Assembly: GCA_049325595.1 (NCBI GenBank)
Contig: JBMOLF010000012.1
Span: 12,081 to 76,080, forward strand
Direction of reading: 5' to 3'
From: Candidatus Babelota bacterium
GTDB taxonomy: Bacteria > Babelota > Babeliae > Babelales > Vermiphilaceae
Length of the DNA stretch: 64,000 nt
Shown here: positions 15,438 to 63,227 of the stretch, piece after piece
Numbering within the stretch: the stretch's first letter is position 1
Layout of the letters: the number at the start of each line of letters is the position of its first letter
Position numbers and translations under genes: made by a program
The notes under the pieces: generated by a model
Seen by the model: only the letters and a program-made list of their open reading frames with translations
Databases searched by the model: none
Told to the model about the DNA's origin: nothing

Positions 15438-16676
15438 TTATTGTTGTTCTTGCTCATCATGCTCATTGAGTAATTCAAGAGTTTTACTAATTAAAGTTTG
15501 TTTGCGTATTTGATAGTCAGGACGAGAAGAAAAATACGCATCTAAAATAGTTTCAAGACTCATGTCAACTGCCACTTGTGTGCGCCGTTCGCGAGTTTCT
15601 GGCTTGCGTACGGGAATAATTCCTACCACGTACATAGCGCTATTGCAGGCACGATGAATAACTCGCAAGTCTACTGAATCTTGTTGAGCGGTTGGTATAT
15701 GATATAAAATTTTTATTACCGCATCGGTAATGGTATAGGTTTCTAGTTTTTCAAGAATTTGTTTAGTTTGATCTTTATCTGGTACCAAATGTACTTCAAT
15801 TTGTATAAAGGGACGAGTAGGGGTTTTGATGAATTCATAGGTAGTTTTTTGTTTGTTATTGAGAGTAACTAAACAAAATCCTTTTTCCTCTTTACGTTCA
15901 CCAAAGTCTACGCGCTCTAAAGAACCAGAATAAACGATAGGCGGATTATTCCCACTATTTAAATCTTGAAAACGATGTAAATGACCCAATGCTACGTAAT
16001 CAAAAGGAGAAATTGCTAATTGTGATGGTAATAAAATAGGATCAGTGCCGTAAATTGCACGTTTTTCTGACCCCGAAAATATACCTGAACTGACCGTTAA
16101 ATGGCCTACCAAAACTGCGGGAATTGTTTGATCAACTTGTGATGCCAGGTCTTTGATAATGTCAGCCACTGCTTGTGAGATATATTGAGTAATGTGAGAG
16201 CCCGATTTTAGTAACTGTGTTCCAAGGCTTAATGTATTTCTGGTGGGCCACGGCATACCTACAATAGAGCAAGGGCCATTTTTAGTTTGTAATGTTATAA
16301 TCCCTGGTTTTGCAAATACGTGAAAACCATTTAAGGGAAGATCGGCAAAAATATCAAGACTGTGAGCTTTACCAAAACTTAATGGATTATCATGATTGCC
16401 AATTACCATGACAACAGGAATATTTGCTTTGAATAACCGCAGGAGACATTTTAAAAATAATTTTTGTTGCGTAGGGCTAGGATGTGCTGTTTTATAGGCA
16501 TCACCAGCGAACAAAAAGAAATCAACATTTTGTTCTATTGCAACATCAATGCAAAAATTAAAGGCGCGCTCAAAATCCAAAAGACGGGTATGTATCCCCG
16601 TCTTTGGATCAATTTTACCATAATTTTCCATGCCGAAATGAATGTCGGCGGTGTGAATAAAGCGTATTACTGACAT
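15438..16676 (-). CDS. sbcD: SbcD/Mre11-family nuclease
   Basis: HTADIHFG, AGDAY, GNHD, DYVALGHLH, YSGSLERVDFGE. Confidence 0.95.
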   Translation of the reverse strand: MSVIRFIHTADIHFGMENYGKIDPKTGIHTRLLDFERAFNFCIDVAIEQNVDFFLFAGDAYKTAHPSPTQQKLFLKCLLRLFKANIPVVMVIGNHDNPLSFGKAHSLDIFADLPLNGFHVFAKPGIITLQTKNGPCSIVGMPWPTRNTLSLGTQLLKSGSHITQYISQAVADIIKDLASQVDQTIPAVLVGHLTVSSGIFSGSEKRAIYGTDPILLPSQLAISPFDYVALGHLHRFQDLNSGNNPPIVYSGSLERVDFGERKEEKGFCLVTLNNKQKTTYEFIKTPTRPFIQIEVHLVPDKDQTKQILEKLETYTITDAVIKILYHIPTAQQDSVDLRVIHRACNSAMYVVGIIPVRKPETRERRTQVAVDMSLETILDAYFSSRPDYQIRKQTLISKTLELLNEHDEQEQQ

Positions 16677-18118
16677 GAGTTATTTTTACTTTTCAATGTG
16701 CCCAGAAAACCTGCAGCAGTAAATTCTACCTGCGGCTCTTGTTGCGACTTTCTTAGTTTTTCTGCATAACCTTCTTTATTTGTTTGCTGAGTGCGTCCAA
16801 TTGCTAAAGCAGAATCTGGTACATCGTCGGTTATAACTGATCCGGCAGCTGTGAATGCTTTATTGCCAATAGTAACGGGCGCAATGAGGGTATTGTTGCT
16901 TCCTATAAAAGCATCATCACCAATTTTTGTTTTATGTTTATGGGTGCCGTCATAATTACAAATAATAGTCCCAGCGCCAATATTTACGCGATCACCAATT
17001 TCCGCATCTCCAAGATATGCAAGATGTTTTGCTTTAGAAACGCGCCCCATAGTTGTTCGTTTTAATTCAACAAACTTACCAACCTGCGCTTTTTCTTTGA
17101 CTATTGAATTATCAATATACCCAAAAGGGCCAACTTCTGCTAACGATTCAATAGTAGAATTTTTAACAATTGATTGAGGGTGAATAACAACATCATCGCC
17201 CATGGTTACATTTTCTAATGAAACAAATTCATTAATTTTGCAATTTTTTCCTATTATTGTTTTGCCTTGCAAATGTACTCCACAACCAACATAGGTTCCT
17301 GATCCAATAGTTATATTTAGATCAAGATGGACACTTTGCGCTGCTGAAAAATGAACACCATGATCCATCCAATATTTGAGAAGTTCACATCGTTTGACTT
17401 GCTCGGCTGCCCATAATTCTTGAAAATTATTTATCCCACGAATACGATCAAATGGTGCATTTATCGTTGTTACTACTAAATTTTTGTCACTTGCAATTTT
17501 TACTAAGTCGGTTAAGTAAAATTCTTGGCTTTTTTCATTTAATTTTAAGGTGCCAATAGTATCTTCTAAAAAAGAACGACGTATCAGATAAATGCCCGCA
17601 TTAATGCAACATTCTTCAGTTGGATCACCTTCAAAATCACGTGCTTCTACAATAGCAATGCTGTTATCTTTTTTTATGACACGGCCATAACCGCCGCATG
17701 AAGGATCTGGATTATGAGCGGTGACAAATGAAATTTCAGCATTAGTACGGGTATGTTCATTATATAAATGCTCAATAATATCGGGCGTAACTAATGGTAC
17801 ATCACCATTCATAATTAATAAATGATCGCGGTCCCAATGTTGTTGAGTGCAAAGAACTGCGTGTCCAGTTCCTTTTTGTTGCTCCTGTACACAATACTCA
17901 ATTGATGAACCATGATAGTTATCTAATACCTCTTTAATTAATTCTTTTTGGTAACCAACAACCACAAGTGTTGGAATATGCAATTGTTCTAGTAATCTTG
18001 TGGCGAACAAAATCATTTCTTGGCCACATATTTTTTCGACTAATTTTGATCTGCCTGTTTTAAAACGAGTTCCTTGCCCGGCAGCAAGAACGACTCCTTG
18101 TACTTTAGTAGATAACAT
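16667..18118 (-). CDS. glmU: Bifunctional UDP-GlcNAc pyrophosphorylase/glucosamine-1-P acetyltransferase
   Basis: VLAAGQGTRF, QEQQKGTGHAV, GDVPL, EFYLTD, hexapeptide repeats, HLAYLGD, NIGAGTIICNYDG. AAGGAG RBS precedes ATG 18118; the ORF is open to 18223. Confidence 0.96.
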   Translation of the reverse strand: MLSTKVQGVVLAAGQGTRFKTGRSKLVEKICGQEMILFATRLLEQLHIPTLVVVGYQKELIKEVLDNYHGSSIEYCVQEQQKGTGHAVLCTQQHWDRDHLLIMNGDVPLVTPDIIEHLYNEHTRTNAEISFVTAHNPDPSCGGYGRVIKKDNSIAIVEARDFEGDPTEECCINAGIYLIRRSFLEDTIGTLKLNEKSQEFYLTDLVKIASDKNLVVTTINAPFDRIRGINNFQELWAAEQVKRCELLKYWMDHGVHFSAAQSVHLDLNITIGSGTYVGCGVHLQGKTIIGKNCKINEFVSLENVTMGDDVVIHPQSIVKNSTIESLAEVGPFGYIDNSIVKEKAQVGKFVELKRTTMGRVSKAKHLAYLGDAEIGDRVNIGAGTIICNYDGTHKHKTKIGDDAFIGSNNTLIAPVTIGNKAFTAAGSVITDDVPDSALAIGRTQQTNKEGYAEKLRKSQQEPQVEFTAAGFLGTLKSKNNSCQ

Positions 18119-18514
18119 GCAATCTCCTTCCCTTTGATCATCAGTTGTTGGGTATGATGTCTTATTTGCCATAGCTAAAATGCATAAAAAAACTAGATGA
18201 GCTTTTTTAAATAATTGCTTCATTTCAATACCCTTTTTTGATGAAAAAAAGCGTTAACAATTTCAATAACGTTACTTAATAAATTCAATTTTTTTATTAT
18301 TAAAAAACAATCCAAATTGTATCACAACCAGAGGCCAAGTCTACTTTTGATAAAGATCTGACAATGCGAAAAGTGATAGTGTTTTTTTATTGTCGTGATA
18401 TCATGTTCGGCATGCATTGATTGCATGCTTTAAAAGTTAAAATGCATATTCAGAACAGCTTTTCAAAAATGCAGAATAAGTTATTATAGATACAAGTACT
18501 TGTTTTTGCAGTTT

Positions 18515-47429: not shown

Positions 47430-47452
47430 GATGTCCTGAAAAAATCTTTGGG

Positions 47453-47808
47453 AAAGGCAAACAATAAGCCGGATTCTGTACTTTGAAAAAGTTGGCAACC
47501 ATTTATCTAAGCGACATACCCGCATGTTTAACCGGAACGAATAACCATACATGCCTATTTTGTCTTGCTCCAGGCAGGGTTTGCCCGTAATGATAATTTG
47601 CATTACCATACCGGGTGCTCTTACCACCCGTTTTCACCCTTACCATTCTGGGTTAAGAATGGCGGTTATTTTCTGTGGCACTTTCCATAGACTTACATCT
47701 TCCTGACTTGAGTTGCCTCTTATCAGGTGCCTTGTTCGTTAGGAGTCCGGACTTTCCTCTAAATATGCATTTGTACCTACATATATAGCGATTGCCTTGT
47801 TTGCCTTT
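47453..47808 (-). ncRNA. rnpB: RNase P RNA (bacterial type A)
   Basis: Minus strand has GAGGAAAGTCCGGACT, AGTGCCACAGAAA, GGGTGAAAACGGGTGGTAAGAGCACC, GGCAAACCC...GAGCAAG, ACAGAATCCGGCTTA; P1 aaaggcaaacaa/ttgtttgccttt. Confidence 0.96.
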
Positions 47809-51587: not shown

Positions 51588-52001
51588 TTAGCAACAACAA
51601 TTGTCCAACATATTTTTGCAGGATTTAACGCATTCGGTACAAAGATTAATGCATGAAATACATGCTTGAGCACAATCTTCTTTGCCGCCACGACAGCTAT
51701 CAATCATTTCTTGAATATGATCGATACAGGCATGACAAGTTTTAATGCAATGCTCAGCTGCTGCAATGCATTCAGGATCAGCACATTCTTGCAAGTGTGC
51801 GCTACAATGTTTAATGCATGCATGGCAGGCTTCAATTGCTTCATTTCCTGCAACAACAGTTAAAGCAAGTTGTTTGGCACATTTTGTTTCTTCACTCACT
51901 GGCGCACATAAAGGAATTAACTTTTGACATTCGTTAATACAATGTTCACATTTTTGAATACAGGTATTGCAAGCAGCTTTTAGTGATGAACTATTTTGCA
52001 T
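51588..52001 (-). CDS. Cys-rich four-helix-bundle copper-storage protein (Csp/DUF326-like)
   Basis: 25 Cys in 137 aa in CxxC/CxxxC helical spacing; AAGGAG RBS; no signal peptide. Confidence 0.8.
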   Translation of the reverse strand: MQNSSSLKAACNTCIQKCEHCINECQKLIPLCAPVSEETKCAKQLALTVVAGNEAIEACHACIKHCSAHLQECADPECIAAAEHCIKTCHACIDHIQEMIDSCRGGKEDCAQACISCINLCTECVKSCKNMLDNCCC

Positions 52002-56026: not shown

Positions 56027-57412
56027 ATGTTGTATAGATTAAGGGGGTTAGTGCTGCTTTTTTTTCTACTATTTCTTCATAACACGGTTCAAGCAGACTA
56101 TAAAAATTCATTATTATTTAATAGTTCTCAATTATTAGGACAAATTCCTTTTTTGGTTTCTAGTAAGGATTGTTGTGCAGAGCAGATTATTAATGGTGGT
56201 TATTATTTGTATTTGTTGCGATATGCTATGGGGTCTAACATAAATAGTATACCTCAAACACACCAAGAGCATTTAAAAATAATAATTGATGTAATGTGGT
56301 ACTTGTATGCTACTGCCTTAAACAAAAACCAACCATTTGATCATGGAACATTGGTAATTAAAGATAGTGGATTTGCTCTTTATAATTTTTTACTGTCATA
56401 CGTTAAGCGATGTAATAAAAAAATTAGGGGAACGTTAAAAGACAATGCAAGTTGGATAAGCTTTAATCCATTTGCCTATCCTCGAGCATCTACACACTTT
56501 GCTAAATCGCAACATCAGTTTCGCCAATATGGTATAGACATACGGTTGAACAAAAATGACAAGGTATGTGCGGCATTACCGTCAAATAAGTGCCATATTT
56601 TATTTGGTATTGTTGATGCGAGTCTGCAACTAATATTTATTAAACTTGAACATCACGGCATATATGCTTATGACGGATGGTTTGGCCACACTTCTGGCTT
56701 TATTGCTTCGCGTATTCGACACGCTTTGCCAACTTTTGAAAAGATCTTGCCAACCACTTGGTATGCTTGGATTGAGCAAAAAGTAGGTCATAATGATGAT
56801 CCTGCAAGCCGACGTGAGCGAGTACCGGTAGCAATAAAACGTCAATTTAAAAAAATATTAAATAGAACAAATATGACGCCGATAAGAAAAAAATATTGCA
56901 TCAGAACTGTTGATGAATATGGCATTCGCGCACTTGAGGCCTTTGCTAAAGAGAAAATGTGTTATATTGCGGATGTAATGAAACATTGTGCGACTAAACA
57001 ACAGTTATCAATAGCGTGGCTGCCAGAAAGTTTTCTGGTTGATCTAAACAACTTTCTTAATGCATTAAAAATCGAGTATGATTATCTTCCTTTGCGTACC
57101 GGTAGAGAAGTAATTGTCGATGATTCTGAATTGCTAACATCTTTATATTATTATTTATTAATAACAGATAAGAGCAAGGCACTGGTATTAAAACCTTTTT
57201 TTGATAATTTACTCCAATTTCGTCTTAATCTAAGGGCAGTGCGCAAATTAATCGCTGACGGGTATGCAGATGCATCACGCGCGCCGCTATCTATTGCGTA
57301 TGAAATGTTAATAAGAAACATGAAATATTTTACGTATCAAAATGTAGAAATAATAAAGCTCATATCGCCCCAAATTGCAGATACATTATATAAAGAGATT
57401 TTTTCAAATTGA
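56027..57412 (+). CDS. Exported protein carrying the shared MWY/AYxRxSxH/RxERVP/RxGxE domain (paralog A)
   Basis: Signal peptide ending VQA; motifs shared with the 57498 and 61090 genes. Confidence 0.8.
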   Translation: MLYRLRGLVLLFFLLFLHNTVQADYKNSLLFNSSQLLGQIPFLVSSKDCCAEQIINGGYYLYLLRYAMGSNINSIPQTHQEHLKIIIDVMWYLYATALNKNQPFDHGTLVIKDSGFALYNFLLSYVKRCNKKIRGTLKDNASWISFNPFAYPRASTHFAKSQHQFRQYGIDIRLNKNDKVCAALPSNKCHILFGIVDASLQLIFIKLEHHGIYAYDGWFGHTSGFIASRIRHALPTFEKILPTTWYAWIEQKVGHNDDPASRRERVPVAIKRQFKKILNRTNMTPIRKKYCIRTVDEYGIRALEAFAKEKMCYIADVMKHCATKQQLSIAWLPESFLVDLNNFLNALKIEYDYLPLRTGREVIVDDSELLTSLYYYLLITDKSKALVLKPFFDNLLQFRLNLRAVRKLIADGYADASRAPLSIAYEMLIRNMKYFTYQNVEIIKLISPQIADTLYKEIFSN

Positions 57413-57497
57413 AGATAAATAAATTGTGACTATTGTTGACTTGTTTTATTTGTCACGGTTATTTTTGTGTTGAAGCGATCTAAAAAAAGAGGAGAGT

Positions 57498-60128
57498 ATG
57501 AAAAAATTAATCTGTTTTTATATAATGCTCATTGTACCTTATTTTTCTTATGCTGTTCGTCCAATACAATCACTCTGGAAAGTAGTTACCCCTGAATTTA
57601 TTGCTAAAGTTCAAGCGAGTGAACCACTCATAAAAAGTGAATCAATAAAACTAGCTACGTTGTCTGGGTTGCCTGATACTATAGGTATTATTGTAACTGA
57701 TGATAAATCAAAAATCCCATTAAAATCAGTAAGTGATCCGGTTAGTACATATTATCAATCATTTCAAAATTTTTTAATTGCCGTGGGTCCGCATATTCCT
57801 CTTACCAAGGAACAGAATAAAAAAGTTCAGTCTCAAAAAATTCAATATTTACGGCGACAGCAACCTGAAGAAATTAAAAAACTGTACAATAATGCCTTAT
57901 TAATTACCTATCACATAGATTCACCTGTCGGATTTACGACATTAATCAATGCTATTAATGAGGCATTTAAAAAAGATAATATTGCGCCTAGGATTGTAAT
58001 AATTGCATATGGTGAAAATGCTTCTTTGGTAAATCAAGCACTTCGTGCTATAGATCCAGAAAAGCCAATTAATATGCTTGTGTATCTGCAATCGCCAATT
58101 TATGAATATATGTGGGATCCACTGCGTGGTTATACTAATGTTCCAAAGCAAACTCCAGTCAATTTTTTAAAGCTTATTAATATTTACACCAAAGCTGAAA
58201 ATCCGGTTTCTTTACAGTATTTAGCTCTTTATCCTGATAGAAAATATCGCGCTCAAATAAATGTTGAGGGAAATAAGTTCCAAAATAAAGTTATTAATGT
58301 TAACGCCATCAAAATAAATAAAAATGGTGAACTCGAAGAACTTCCTACCTCTGATTTTGCAACTAATCTTTTTATGAGTAACTTGGCTTGGCTTATTGAA
58401 CAGTTAAAAACTTACCAAGTAAACTCTGATTTAATGGCTCAACTCTGGAGCGAGCAAAAAGATCGAGGCCAAAAAAAAGGATCTGTTTTTGTTAACAGAT
58501 TTGTTAATATATCTGCTAATGGTGATCTTACCATTAAGTATGGCGATGGCCAAAAGCAAGAATATGTGCTTATCCCTGAAATTAAACTCTCAACCCAAGT
58601 GCTTGATTTTATAAAAAATGGCTTTACTAAAGAATTAAATGAAAGCTGGTCTCAGCTTCGAAATATTTTTGATACATCGGCGATTGAAGGTTGGAAACCA
58701 TATTATTTTGGTGGGTCTAAAATGGCAGCCGATATAGCGCGCATAAAAGATCAACACACCAAAGAATTTAATTCTCCGTTATATTTACAACCATATAAAA
58801 TTGTTGATCTATTAAATAACAAACAAAACGAATTGCAAGAATTACTACAAAAGTTAGATAATCCTGTTTCATTATCTTATGCCATTAACAAGATTATATT
58901 AGGAGGGGATTATATTTTTCAACTTCTTTTTCAAAATAATTTGCAAAATGTACCAACCAAAACGCAAGATGAATATCTTCAATCTATCATTGCGATAATG
59001 TGGTATTTGTACAGCCTAGCAATCAATAAAAACCAAGGGTTTACCGAAGGTGCCTTTGTTATTGAAGATAAAGATTTTAAGCTTTACAACTTTTTGATGG
59101 GCTATGTAAAAAAAGTAAATCCGAGCATAATGGGTACTATAAATGATCCTGCGCGGGCATCAGCCGATAATCCGTTTGCCTATTCGCGCGTCTCATCGCA
59201 TTACAAGTTAGAACAAAAACAACATCGACAATATGGTATTGATATTCGGATTGATAAAAATAGCGAAGCTTTACCATTACTACCAATTGGTAAGCGGCAT
59301 TTAGTATTTGGTATTATCGATCAAGCAAGAAATTTATTATATTTAAAACCTGAAAATTATGGCATTTTTACGTTTTATGAAAAAGCCATGCATGGTAAAG
59401 AATTTGGCGTAGCTCAAGCAGTTAAACTATTACCTAAAATGAAAAATATTTTATCAGAGCCATGGTATAAAGCTTTTGAAGATTATATCGGCACTGATGA
59501 TGATAAGCTCTATCGCAAAGAGCGAGTTCCACTAAAATTTATACTTGACTTTAAAGAAATTATAAAAACTCTATGTGAAGCGCCAGAAGATTATAAAGCT
59601 AAGATGAATGGTGTAGCGCATAAGGGAATACAATATATTTTTGGCATAAAGCAGAGCTATATAGTAGCCCAATTACGACAAGAGTTAGACTCATTATATG
59701 ATTATCTTTATTTGCGAACAGGACGTGAAATAATATTAACTTATGACGAGTTAAGCTCTTCACTTTATTATCATTTATTGCGTATTAATAATGATAAAAT
59801 GCCAGAAGCAAAAATACTTTTTAATACAATAATAGAGCTTAAAAATAGTATTTCGCAGTTAAAGCAAAAGAAATTTGAACAACGAAACTTGCTCAATATA
59901 ACAATACCGCCTATTAGTAACTCATTACAAAAAATACGAGATTTAGCTGGTGCATTTAATAAAGTTAAACCGCAATTTATTGAGCAATGGTCACCCGGAG
60001 TTTATAACTATATAAACCAAGTACAAAGTAGGTTGCAGGAGGCGCTTAATGCGGATGATAAGATTGCTTTTACTGCATTAACTGGTCTAGGCACTTTATT
60101 TGATAGTCGGTTGTGGATTAAGCAGTAA
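57498..60128 (+). CDS. Large exported protein: N-terminal hydrolase-like region plus the shared effector-like domain (paralog B)
   Basis: Signal peptide ending SYA; GAGGAG RBS; IMWYLY, AYSRVSSH, QYGIDIR, KPENYG, RKERVP, LRTGRE. Confidence 0.8.
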   Translation: MKKLICFYIMLIVPYFSYAVRPIQSLWKVVTPEFIAKVQASEPLIKSESIKLATLSGLPDTIGIIVTDDKSKIPLKSVSDPVSTYYQSFQNFLIAVGPHIPLTKEQNKKVQSQKIQYLRRQQPEEIKKLYNNALLITYHIDSPVGFTTLINAINEAFKKDNIAPRIVIIAYGENASLVNQALRAIDPEKPINMLVYLQSPIYEYMWDPLRGYTNVPKQTPVNFLKLINIYTKAENPVSLQYLALYPDRKYRAQINVEGNKFQNKVINVNAIKINKNGELEELPTSDFATNLFMSNLAWLIEQLKTYQVNSDLMAQLWSEQKDRGQKKGSVFVNRFVNISANGDLTIKYGDGQKQEYVLIPEIKLSTQVLDFIKNGFTKELNESWSQLRNIFDTSAIEGWKPYYFGGSKMAADIARIKDQHTKEFNSPLYLQPYKIVDLLNNKQNELQELLQKLDNPVSLSYAINKIILGGDYIFQLLFQNNLQNVPTKTQDEYLQSIIAIMWYLYSLAINKNQGFTEGAFVIEDKDFKLYNFLMGYVKKVNPSIMGTINDPARASADNPFAYSRVSSHYKLEQKQHRQYGIDIRIDKNSEALPLLPIGKRHLVFGIIDQARNLLYLKPENYGIFTFYEKAMHGKEFGVAQAVKLLPKMKNILSEPWYKAFEDYIGTDDDKLYRKERVPLKFILDFKEIIKTLCEAPEDYKAKMNGVAHKGIQYIFGIKQSYIVAQLRQELDSLYDYLYLRTGREIILTYDELSSSLYYHLLRINNDKMPEAKILFNTIIELKNSISQLKQKKFEQRNLLNITIPPISNSLQKIRDLAGAFNKVKPQFIEQWSPGVYNYINQVQSRLQEALNADDKIAFTALTGLGTLFDSRLWIKQ

Positions 60129-60932
60129 CCTAAAAGAATCGACCATATTTAATGTAATTATTTCTTGGTTTATTTCTACAGGAACTGGATTTGCCAGTTC
60201 CTGTTTCCATTTTGCTACGTAATATTGTGCATGTTGTTGGGCAATTTCATGAATTAATCCATCCGATTGATTGTCTTGTGTATAAAGTTTTTTAAAAATC
60301 TTCATTTTTTCATCAAATGGCAGAAAACGTGTTGCGTAATGTAGTAAATGATTGCGCAAAGTTATATGATCTTCTTTGTGTATATGATCAATAGTCTGAT
60401 TGATATGATCATTCTTATAAAGTTTATGTAAACTCATTACTGTAAGTGGATATACCATATTTGTTTGTGCTACATCAAAATTATCTGAGGTATACCAATG
60501 ACCGTAATTTACCAATTCTTGTAAAATGTCATTGTATCCTTGATCAGATATAATAGTTTCAAGCAATGATGAGTTTTCTCGTTTATGTAAAAAGTTAGCG
60601 CCGTATGTTAACAATAGACGCGTGATTTTTAAGTTTTTTTGACAGGATGCAATCCATAATGGTGTAGCTCCTAATGCATCTGAGGCTTCTAAATTGGCAT
60701 TATTCTTAATTAAGCATTTTGCGGACTCAAGGGCATCATAATAAACTGCTGCAAATAAGGGTGTTACTCCGTGATTGTTGGTTTCGTTAATATCATGTCC
60801 TTTATCTAAGAGCTGTTGCAATGCGATGACATTATTCGTGCGGGCTGCTTCGATTAATGGGGTTATGGATATTTCTTGAGCAGTTATGCAGAGCTGAAAT
60901 AGTAACAAGTTATAGACTATTAGTTTTTTCAT
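60096..60932 (-). CDS. Exported ankyrin-repeat protein
   Basis: TPLIEAA, NNHGVTPLFAAV, DALGATPLWIAS...LLLTYGAN. Confidence 0.88.
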   Translation of the reverse strand: MKKLIVYNLLLFQLCITAQEISITPLIEAARTNNVIALQQLLDKGHDINETNNHGVTPLFAAVYYDALESAKCLIKNNANLEASDALGATPLWIASCQKNLKITRLLLTYGANFLHKRENSSLLETIISDQGYNDILQELVNYGHWYTSDNFDVAQTNMVYPLTVMSLHKLYKNDHINQTIDHIHKEDHITLRNHLLHYATRFLPFDEKMKIFKKLYTQDNQSDGLIHEIAQQHAQYYVAKWKQELANPVPVEINQEIITLNMVDSFRLLLNPQPTIK

Positions 60933-61089
60933 GATTCACCTTTAATATTCTGGCTTTTTGAAATTTTTATCTGATAAATTATAGTAATAATAACTTATAT
61001 TATTACTGCATTAATTTGCAAATTGAACAAAACGGTTTACACTTACAGCATTGTTATGGAATATCTCTTTTTTTAGAGCAAGAGGCTAT

Positions 61090-62964
61090 ATGATTTGCCG
61101 GTTTATTTTGTGTATTTTTTTGTTTAGTAGTACTACTTATTCTATGCAAGACTCATTAATTTTACCAAGCAAATTACAAGTACAGCATCAACGGTTTACC
61201 GATTTAGATAAACATATTACTTATACACAAAACGATCTTCAAGTTAGCATTGCAAAAGCTTATGGCTTATTAAGAAACACAAAAAAATTTAACTATTCTC
61301 AACAAGCAACTAATTGGTTTTTAAAGAAAAACGACATTAAACTATTAAATTCATCCAGATCACAAAGCATAACACATAATTCCTTACGTTCTTTGCATGC
61401 TGCAGATTGTTCATGCAATCATTGCAATCTGAGTCAAGCAAGAAAAGCGCTCTTTGCTAACCTTAATGCTGATATTAAAGAGGTGTCGTTATTGTCTGAA
61501 TCAATAACATCTAGCAATTCAATTAACCAAGATGCTATAGATGATCATCCACTTGCAAGAGCACAATTTCTTGATGAAGAAATAGAACAATTAAGTAACT
61601 CAATGCCATCGATAAATGAAAGTGAGTCGCAATCTGAATTTAAAATGAGTTTCCAAGAGATTCAGGACAACAAAGATAATTTGCTCTTAAGCATTCCCGA
61701 TGACTATAAAGAAACATTTGTACGTTATAGCAAAAAACAGCTTTATGAGATTCAAGATCATGTCATTAAAGGTGGCGCTTTATTTTATCAGCTACAGCAT
61801 AATGCAAATATTCTGGAACTTGAAAAAGAAAAATTAGACAAAGCAACTGAACCAGAAAAGGACGAAGCACGTAAACAATATTTACGCTCTATTGTTGATT
61901 TAATGTGGTATTTTTATCATGAATCAAGTAGAAAAAAAGAAGCATATGAAGAGGGTATGTTTGTATTGAGCGATCCTAATGGTATTGTATACAATTACTT
62001 ACTTAATTATGCAAAAGGGGTTAATCCTAAAATTAAGGGAACCTTAGAAGATCCAGCATTATTACATGCCGATAATCCTTTTGCTTATCCGCGCGCTACT
62101 TCTCATTTAAAAGATATCAATGCGCGGGCTTATGCCATTGATATACGTTTTGACAAAAATGAATCTTCCAAGGCTAATTTACCGGCTCAAAAAAGAACCT
62201 TCTTTTTTGAATATGATGGTAAAAATTTGTATGGAAAACTTGAAAATTATGGCCTTGCGCCGTCAGAAGCCATTTATCATCTAGGTGAGTTGGGTGTTGC
62301 GCAGCTCAGAAAAATACCATTAACCAAAAAATATTTAGGCGGTGATGACCAAGAATCATATCGTAAAGAACGAGTTCCTGCTGATTTTATTCGTAAAATA
62401 AAACCATGGTTGCAAACAAAACCACTATCAGATGAAGAAAAAGAAAAGATTTTTAATCATATTAAAAAAATTGGATACAAGGCTTTATTTGAAAGTGATA
62501 TTATTGCTTTGGGTGAATCTCTTATTGATGAGGAGGAAAAGGATCAAGATCATTTTCCATCAAGAAGAGGCCACGAAACTATTTTGTTTCATGAACTTTG
62601 CTCGGCTTTGTATTATAAATTATATACTGAGAAAAATGCACATGCGCCAGAAGTTAAAAAGCTTTTTGACGGATTAAATCAAATCCAATTAATGCTCAAG
62701 GAACTTAAAAAACCCTGCGATTTGAATGAGCAGCTGCAAAAGGTAAATATTTTAGAAGAAATAGTGCAACAAAAGCTTTCTACAGAACAAATAAAAGTTT
62801 TAAGAAACTATAACACATCAATCTTTGATTATGTAATGTCTATTCATTTGTTTTTACAAAAAGCTTTGTCGCAAACTAATTTGCAGGATAAAGTGAAAAA
62901 CCTCACGCCGCGCCATGGTATTTTTGAGGTTGTACATGAACAAATGAATCGAGTTCAAGCGTAG
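61090..62964 (+). CDS. Exported protein carrying the shared effector-like domain (paralog C)
   Basis: Start ATG 61090 (GAGG RBS), signal ...TYS|MQD; LMWYFY, AYPRATSH, YAIDIR, KLENYG, RKERVP, RRGHE. Confidence 0.8.
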   Translation: MICRFILCIFLFSSTTYSMQDSLILPSKLQVQHQRFTDLDKHITYTQNDLQVSIAKAYGLLRNTKKFNYSQQATNWFLKKNDIKLLNSSRSQSITHNSLRSLHAADCSCNHCNLSQARKALFANLNADIKEVSLLSESITSSNSINQDAIDDHPLARAQFLDEEIEQLSNSMPSINESESQSEFKMSFQEIQDNKDNLLLSIPDDYKETFVRYSKKQLYEIQDHVIKGGALFYQLQHNANILELEKEKLDKATEPEKDEARKQYLRSIVDLMWYFYHESSRKKEAYEEGMFVLSDPNGIVYNYLLNYAKGVNPKIKGTLEDPALLHADNPFAYPRATSHLKDINARAYAIDIRFDKNESSKANLPAQKRTFFFEYDGKNLYGKLENYGLAPSEAIYHLGELGVAQLRKIPLTKKYLGGDDQESYRKERVPADFIRKIKPWLQTKPLSDEEKEKIFNHIKKIGYKALFESDIIALGESLIDEEEKDQDHFPSRRGHETILFHELCSALYYKLYTEKNAHAPEVKKLFDGLNQIQLMLKELKKPCDLNEQLQKVNILEEIVQQKLSTEQIKVLRNYNTSIFDYVMSIHLFLQKALSQTNLQDKVKNLTPRHGIFEVVHEQMNRVQA

Positions 62965-63199: not shown

Positions 63200-63227
63200 T
63201 TGACAATTATTCTATTTGTAATATAAT
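63200..63227 (+). promoter_or_regulatory. Consensus sigma70 promoter
   Basis: TTGACA-N16-TATAAT, followed by GGAGG RBS and ATG 63251. Confidence 0.75.

Follow-up and report, generated by a model that had tools for sequence, protein, structure and literature searches.

Three paralogous proteins with Sec-type leaders share a candidate enzyme domain of a large unnamed family in a Candidatus Babelota genome

A 64,000-nucleotide stretch of the genome of a Candidatus Babelota bacterium (NCBI GenBank assembly GCA_049325595.1, contig JBMOLF010000012.1, positions 12,081 to 76,080 of the forward strand; hereafter the window) encodes three paralogous proteins, P1, P2 and P3, that share a C-terminal module. 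Profile searches indicate that this module belongs to a large protein family that has no name. The evidence leans towards the module being an enzyme that is exported, belongs to a family not described before and acts outside the bacterial cytoplasm in a protist, with an activity that is predicted. An earlier interpretation made from the letters of the window (the sequence-only reading) had reported proteins of 461, 876 and ~624 amino acids with signal peptides and unrelated N-termini, and all three are present with mutually unalignable N-termini at the positions given in Table 1.

Alignment of the C-terminal ~330 residues gives identities to P1 of 35% for P2 and 31% for P3. The motif order of the sequence-only reading is seen in this part of all three proteins and runs MWY(L/F)Y, NPFAY.R..(S/T)H, Y(G/A)IDIR, LP..K, K.E..G, H, G.DD...R.ERVP and R.G.E. 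A six-frame search of the genome with P1 retrieves P2 with an E value of 9.7e-58 and P3 with one of 2.0e-27, and the likeness of P1 to both is thus far above chance. The genome, a draft of 1.29 Mb in 24 contigs with a completeness of 94.96%, encodes two further paralogs of 392 and 418 amino acids that lie in tandem on another contig (C15) and likewise carry Sec-type leaders. The initial count of three paralogs therefore stands for the cluster and falls short for the genome, which has five. Each of the five has a one-to-one orthologue in a sister genome of the same genus (G246), with tree support of 0.97-1.0, and the deeper nodes of the paralog tree are weak (0.57-0.81). This tree was built with FastTree on 300 columns and 45 rows, after one of the initial 46 was dropped for gaps, and samples the wider family at every fourth representative.

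We found the module to be widespread. A profile of the five domains matches 896 of 1.84 billion cluster representatives at E≤1e-3; of these, 568 pass E≤1e-10 and 139 pass E≤1e-30. Within the phylum of the window the domain is present in 49 of 261 genomes (36 of the 189 high-quality ones) and in 35 of 145 genera, often in multiple, tandem copies (for example in genomes G178, G258, G259, G207 and G092). Near-full domains were recovered in 157 of 167 retrieved members. In these the domain is C-terminal, followed by a median tail of 7 residues and preceded by an N-terminal extension that has a median length of 200 residues and ranges from 0 to 943, and the N-terminus is strongly hydrophobic in 115 of 147 complete-looking members. 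Family members are about 22-37% identical to one another. Source names read 'hypothetical protein' throughout, apart from a single 'DnaJ domain-containing protein [Candidatus Babeliales bacterium]'. On a 5.2-kb contig labelled Deltaproteobacteria lies one true homologue (hhalign probability 98.5%). A search of named-genome contigs with the five-row alignment reached one named genome and is no measure of range. The closest named protein, at 56% identity, comes from 'Candidatus Dependentiae bacterium Noda2021' and is annotated as hypothetical. The genome announcement of this Dependentiae isolate describes it as infecting Vermamoeba (PMC8812299), which agrees with the protist-parasite setting suggested from the sequence.

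Comparisons with curated families and solved structures, by sequence or by fold, bear out the earlier description of the module as uncharacterised. No Pfam or NCBIfam family falls on the shared domain of P1. In a diverse set of 52 members, Pfam gave no family at E≤1e-3 for 51, and the remaining one matches DnaJ in a terminal extension outside the domain. When 92 members were scanned at E≤1, no family was found on more than two of them among the matches listed (25 of 86 families). PADLOC gave no match to the shared-domain proteins, and PHROGs gave one match at chance level (18 bits, in one of nine proteins). Profile searches of PDB sequences found no match, with best E values of 0.78-0.98.

An AlphaFold2 model of mature P1, computed from a 92-row alignment, is confident (predicted local distance difference test [pLDDT] 91.6, predicted template-modelling score [pTM] 0.91). 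It proceeds from N-terminal helices through an alpha/beta core and a helical region to a terminal helical bundle at residues 358-438, and its core strands span mature residues 83-89, 127-130, 145-148, 167-174, 179-185, 238-239 and 339-341. Because most members end a median of 7 residues past the profile match, the terminal bundle is probably restricted to the subfamily in the window. Foldseek found no match to the model in the PDB at E≤1e-3 (best E 0.23, template-modelling [TM] score at most 0.17), and re-aligning its top 862 chains still gave no clear structural neighbour. Fold searches with a core-only model of lower confidence (pLDDT 66) were likewise without a match. We class the fold as unassigned and do not call it new, because the listed Foldseek rows span helical parts only and the model of the core alone has lower confidence. 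ESM Atlas returned no usable match for P1. In BFVD the top row came from Chrysochromulina ericina virus CeV-01B. It is an uncharacterised protein of 397 residues, matched by Foldseek over 329 columns with a probability of 0.98, an E value of 4e-3 and a TM score of 0.22, and we treat this model-based likeness to a giant-virus protein as a weak lead. None of the 23 pattern matches in a pattern-based scan of viral contigs encodes a relative of the family.

The case for an enzyme comes mainly from conservation. Ten polar residues (R153, H157, D171, H190, K206, E208, H221, E264, R357 and E361 in P1 numbering) are kept at 92-99% in 154 family rows, in keeping with the enzyme-like look ascribed to the module earlier. 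By type they are two Arg, three His, one Lys, one Asp and three Glu. Few members deviate at these sites, and the exchanges are for the most part conservative (K to R, E to D, D to E). In P3 the place of H190 is taken by Thr, which is also found there in 11 of the 154 rows. Structural residues are also kept (W91, G107, Y125, G169, I170, P185, G211 and G359 in P1). The ten residues map on or beside the model strands at mature residues 127-130, 145-148, 167-174, 179-185, 238-239 and 339-341. Because residues alternate along a strand, the pairs D171-x-R173 and K206-x-E208 would each point to one side of the sheet, on the assumption that the strands form a single sheet; clustering was read from secondary-structure positions only. 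Near-invariance of these residues suggests a candidate active or ligand site, and the mixture of Arg and Lys with His, Glu and Asp would suit an anionic substrate (for example one bearing phosphate) together with a metal ion or a general base.

Sec-type export, as originally proposed, is supported by the leaders. By inspection, signal peptides of this type are present on P1, P2, P3 (read from the ATG at 61090), both C15 paralogs and the protein of an ankyrin-repeat gene located between P2 and P3. The N-termini of P1-P3 combine a basic n-region, a hydrophobic core of 10-15 residues and small residues preceding the likely cleavage site; assignment was mainly by inspection and a crude hydrophobicity score, not by a validated predictor. 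The P3 frame is open from a TTG at 61051 to 62964 (637 amino acids), and the ATG at 61090 has AAGAGG 4 nucleotides upstream and begins the 624-residue form with MICRFILCIFLFSSTTYS. For passage beyond the inner membrane, the genome offers two secretin-domain genes with open frames of 789 and 862 amino acids, 4.5 kb apart (G000:C9:48860-53923), which may serve a type II secretion system (T2SS) or type IV pili. FHIPEP, the marker of the export gate of type III secretion systems (T3SS) and flagella (SctV/FlhA), has no match in the draft, in a search whose control was positive in 4 of 14 genomes, and VirB4, a marker of type IV secretion systems, was not found in the genome. Excerpts of a study of a cultured member of the phylum describe Sec as the export route, report a signal-peptide set enriched in proteins of unknown function and note vesicles (PMC6561590).

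Many family members from other organisms (P0023, P0046, P0050, P0053, P0056, P0057, P0059 and others) have a short motif directly after the predicted cleavage site. It consists of AQA or AHA followed by A/G-x-W-x-x-x-R/K (for example AQAAWY or AGLWxxxRNS), is weak or absent in P1-P3, and may be a sorting or anchoring signal.

The sequence-only reading had gone further and likened the motif order to the C-terminal domain of HopW1 (HopW1-C), the type III effector of Pseudomonas syringae, proposing a homologue that disrupts host F-actin. The logic is similar: in each case a secreted protein of a host-associated bacterium has a variable N-terminal part and ends in a conserved module. In excerpts of the HopW1 study, the effector is delivered by type III injection, its actin-disrupting fragment comprises residues 407-774, and shortening of actin filaments by HopW1-C in vitro is reported (PMC4072799). 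As the source we used the full-length gene on NC_005919 (801-residue frame, L027:124-2529, minus strand) and compared the C-terminal 400 residues; NC_005918 has no hopW1 and NC_007274 has only truncated N-terminal hopW1 fragments. Aligned with the 92-row family profile, HopW1-C reaches an hhalign probability of 0.05%, and the best BLASTP E value between P1 and HopW1 is 2.6. We gathered 27 natural HopW1-C relatives from Xanthomonas, Pseudomonas, Paracidovorax, Ralstonia and Herbaspirillum, left out six short or partial ones, and built a 22-sequence profile from the query and the other 21. This profile reaches 0.27% against the 92-row family alignment and 0.14% against the five-paralog alignment. 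The invariants shared by the 22 homologues include N341-C342-N343, H380 and W385 (HopW1-C numbering in the alignment), and the N-C-N triplet and a late His might provide a Cys/His catalytic pair. None of these invariants has a counterpart in the family described here, whose columns of at least 90% conservation contain no Cys and follow a different residue order.

The Pfam family PF15457 (HopW1-1; gathering score 27 bits) has no match on P1-P3 at E≤1, and a six-frame search of the genome with it gave one 11-bit match on another contig. HopW1 itself, the positive control, scores 567.7 bits over residues 28-343 of the 801-residue frame only. Because the model is confined to that N-terminal stretch, the Pfam negative is no valid test of the actin-disrupting C-terminal domain, which has no Pfam model. 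It is the profile comparisons that refute the homology, and the lack of a significant match to HopW1-like proteins is the outcome that the sequence-only reading had itself named as refuting it. With the homology gone, actin targeting loses its only basis; the genome moreover has no type III export gate, and we regard a HopW1-like actin effector as extremely unlikely.

A further explanation is that the module is a periplasmic or cell-envelope enzyme that serves the bacterium itself, for example by remodelling the wall, the outer membrane or scavenged lipids. Export by a Sec leader alone would fit such a role, as would the signal peptides on 44% of coding sequences in a cultured phylum member (PMC6561590), and so would the locus. 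In both species of the genus it has murG, a class A penicillin-binding protein (PBP) gene and dciA as neighbours, and the order P1-P2-ankyrin-P3 is kept in G246 beside murG, with the ankyrin gene on the opposite strand included. The locus is old, stable and chromosomal. Identity to the G246 orthologues is 57% for P1 and 51% for P2, which is housekeeping-like when set against MurG (56%), the beta subunit of phenylalanyl-tRNA synthetase (PheRS-beta, 65%) and the class A PBP (72%); P3 (41%) and the ankyrin protein (37%) diverge faster. Weighing against an envelope function, the domain is patchy, being absent from about 80% of the genomes in the phylum (and found in 36 of the 189 high-quality ones), where an essential function would be near-universal. 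The presence of five paralogs in a genome of 1.29 Mb and the highly variable N-terminal modules across the family also argue against it, as does the orientation of P1, which is divergent from dciA and shares no operon with the wall genes. We consider an envelope enzyme unlikely.

The module could also be a non-catalytic domain for binding, adhesion or scaffolding, in which the conserved polar residues would retain a ligand or build a network that stabilises the fold. No catalytic fold or motif that is known was recognised in it, and the N-terminal module of P2 resembles an alpha/beta hydrolase that has apparently lost its nucleophile, so that pseudo-enzymes would occur among these proteins. 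Conservation of ten charged or His residues at 92-99%, in a family whose members are about 22-37% identical, is far more like an active site than a binding surface, and the rarity and mostly conservative nature of the substitutions point the same way; this explanation appears quite improbable.

Several observations weigh against an exported enzyme acting in a protist. An effector-like fast evolution of P1 and P2 was considered and rejected, since their divergence is comparable to that of MurG, and their syntenic position beside murG gives no sign of effector-like mobility. A signal peptide says little in favour of a host target when nearly half of a proteome carries one, as in the excerpts on the cultured phylum member, where the share is 44% of coding sequences (PMC6561590). 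The crude hydrophobicity score is unspecific, with two of four presumed cytoplasmic controls scoring at least 2.0. The fold of the shared domain was not recognised as that of any known enzyme, the gathering of the ten residues into one putative pocket is read from secondary-structure positions in the model, and most relatives are unnamed metagenomic proteins, which blurs the range outside the phylum.

Patchy distribution, tandem multi-copy paralogy, modular N-termini and the biology of the phylum nevertheless suggest an accessory, host-related role, and an exported enzyme is the interpretation that we retain. The five proteins would be modular: behind a Sec signal peptide and an N-terminal region that varies, each would have a conserved alpha/beta domain of ~300-330 residues. 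Sec would move them across the inner membrane to the periplasm, from which a secretin-type outer-membrane channel or vesicles could release them. The variable N-terminal modules may supply targeting or accessory functions, and the site of action would lie outside the cytoplasm of the bacterium while it grows inside a protist cell.

Dependentiae are a widespread phylum of obligate protist parasites. To our knowledge their manipulation of the host is almost unknown, and published accounts mainly concern ankyrin repeats and many signal-peptide ORFans. The family therefore offers a concrete, testable candidate for an exported enzyme of Dependentiae, one that spans multiple genera, is confidently modelled and points to a small set of residues that may be catalytic. 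A bolder proposal, which we put forward as speculative, is that it forms a new enzyme superfamily with a fold unrepresented among solved structures: a signature secreted catalytic domain of Dependentiae, exported through Sec and a secretin, equipped with interchangeable N-terminal targeting modules and reworking the protist host (for example through the rearrangements of membranes or mitochondria that are seen around these bacteria). If that were so, the likeness to the CeV-01B protein (TM score 0.22) would hint at a module common to unrelated intracellular parasites of protists. Should both activity and fold prove new, the family would add an enzyme class and provide a handle on host takeover by Dependentiae. 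The comparison with HopW1 also corrects a tempting link to an actin effector of plant pathogens, for which a Pfam negative by itself would have been no valid test.

Table 1. Features of the paralog cluster, in positions of the window
Feature	Position	Strand	Description	Basis
P1	56027..57412	+	461 aa; Sec-type leader, residues 1-23 MLYRLRGLVLLFFLLFLHNTVQA, shared domain, helical C-terminal bundle	ORF, inspection, AlphaFold
Shared domain, P1	56174..57238	+	residues 50-404; profile positions 1-331 of 340 matched	
P2	57498..60128	+	876 aa; Sec-type leader MKKLICFYIMLIVPYFSYA, N-terminal region of ~440 aa, shared domain, helical tail	ORF, alignment
P2 N-terminal module	57555..58427	+	residues ~20-310; alpha/beta-hydrolase-like fold, lead only	ESM Atlas
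Shared domain, P2	58884..59885	+	residues 463-796	profile match and conservation
Conserved set in P2			R564, H568, D582, H601, K617, E619, H632, E675, R740, E744	
Ankyrin-repeat protein	60096..60932	-	278 aa; own Sec-type leader MKKLIVYNLLLFQLCITA	Pfam Ank_2
P3	61090..62964	+	624 aa; Sec-type leader, polar N-terminal region of ~200 aa, shared domain, helical tail	ORF
Shared domain, P3	61750..62730	+	9 of 10 conserved polar residues retained	profile match and conservation
aa, amino acids; ORF, open reading frame.

The N-terminal module of P2 resembles the alpha/beta-hydrolase fold in ESM Atlas, with a features score of 0.92. Its structural rows there, with TM scores by row of up to 0.61, are either alpha/beta hydrolases or hypothetical proteins without a name; the Atlas's own model of the protein is poor (pLDDT 0.36). 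It is unlike that fold in having no Pfam match and an Asn where the nucleophile would be. At the nucleophile-elbow position, P2 and its orthologues P0009 and P0013 read G-E-N-A and the orthologue P0012 reads A-E-S-A (Asn in three of four, Ser in one of four), and P2 thus lacks the Ser of the sm-x-Ser-x-sm elbow (sm, small residue). From its sequence, the module may be a pseudo-enzyme or a targeting module.

The ankyrin gene that the sequence-only reading placed within the cluster is real. Its product matches Pfam Ank_2 with 89.7 bits, where the cut-off is 27.3, and an E value of 1.8e-25, and its orthologue in G246 does so at 5.7e-12 in a conserved position. The gene is convergent with P2, the two open reading frames (ORFs) overlapping by 33 bp, and divergent from P3. 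The genome contains ~24 ankyrin ORFs in 1.29 Mb, one per ~54 kb, and by our estimate the chance of finding one inside a 7-kb cluster is ~13%. No ankyrin gene lies within ~26 kb of the paralog pair on C15. Adjacency as a sign of a functional link was accordingly rejected as not significant by itself, though the arrangement is kept in G246. A strong terminator-like hairpin of 11 pairs lies at 60178-60204 on the plus strand, 50 nucleotides past the P2 stop; this places it in the 3' end of the ankyrin ORF, which converges on P2.

Other features of the surroundings were noted. The next gene 3' of P3 (63236-63895, plus strand) encodes 219 amino acids with a hydrophobic leader, has no match in Pfam, NCBIfam or PADLOC, and is preceded by a sigma-70-like site (63200-63227) that is perfect at 12 of 12 positions. 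In the sister genome, the orthologue of the class A PBP (G246:C1:866727-868597) was matched in two pieces, the second with one in-frame TGA; this may reflect a frameshift, a pseudogene or a sequencing error. Elsewhere in the window, a GlmU-like ORF (16667-18223, minus strand) shows, starting at residue 43, an NTP_transferase domain and hexapeptide repeats. The ~40 residues of N-terminal extension before them include a strongly hydrophobic stretch, which means either that the start was called wrongly or that the protein is anchored in the membrane. A Cys-rich ORF of 137 amino acids with regularly spaced Cys (51588-52001, minus strand) has no Pfam match at E≤1e-5, and positions 47449-47808 encode an RNase P RNA of bacterial type.

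The proteins described here are familiar in kind, as modular and enzyme-like products that an intracellular bacterium exports by Sec; their domain family is without a curated model, a named member or a recognised structural relative. Intracellular bacteria of the Legionella type secrete exoenzymes in two steps, by Sec and then through a secretin of a T2SS. The present proteins are like these in their Sec leader, in the secretin genes of the genome and in a modular, enzyme-like cargo, and differ in that the Pfam and NCBIfam searches showed no homology of the shared domain to any named exoenzyme family. The HopW1-C family, known from HopW1 of Pseudomonas syringae, AopW1 of Acidovorax/Paracidovorax, and relatives in Xanthomonas and Ralstonia, is alike in being a conserved C-terminal module of a secreted protein in a host-associated bacterium, and likewise has no Pfam model. 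It differs in sequence and profile and in its invariants, and the present proteins have Sec leaders in a genome without a T3SS export gate. No description of the family was found in passages of the paper on Chromulinavorax destructans (PMC6561590), whose supplements fall outside this scope, or by a broader, uninformative full-text search. In those passages, the 'host-manipulation apparatus' of C. destructans parallels the present cluster in Sec export, unknown function and a co-located ankyrin protein with a signal peptide. What is described there are ORFans and ankyrin expansions; the present family is conserved, occurs in 35 of 145 genera of the phylum and has a candidate active site.

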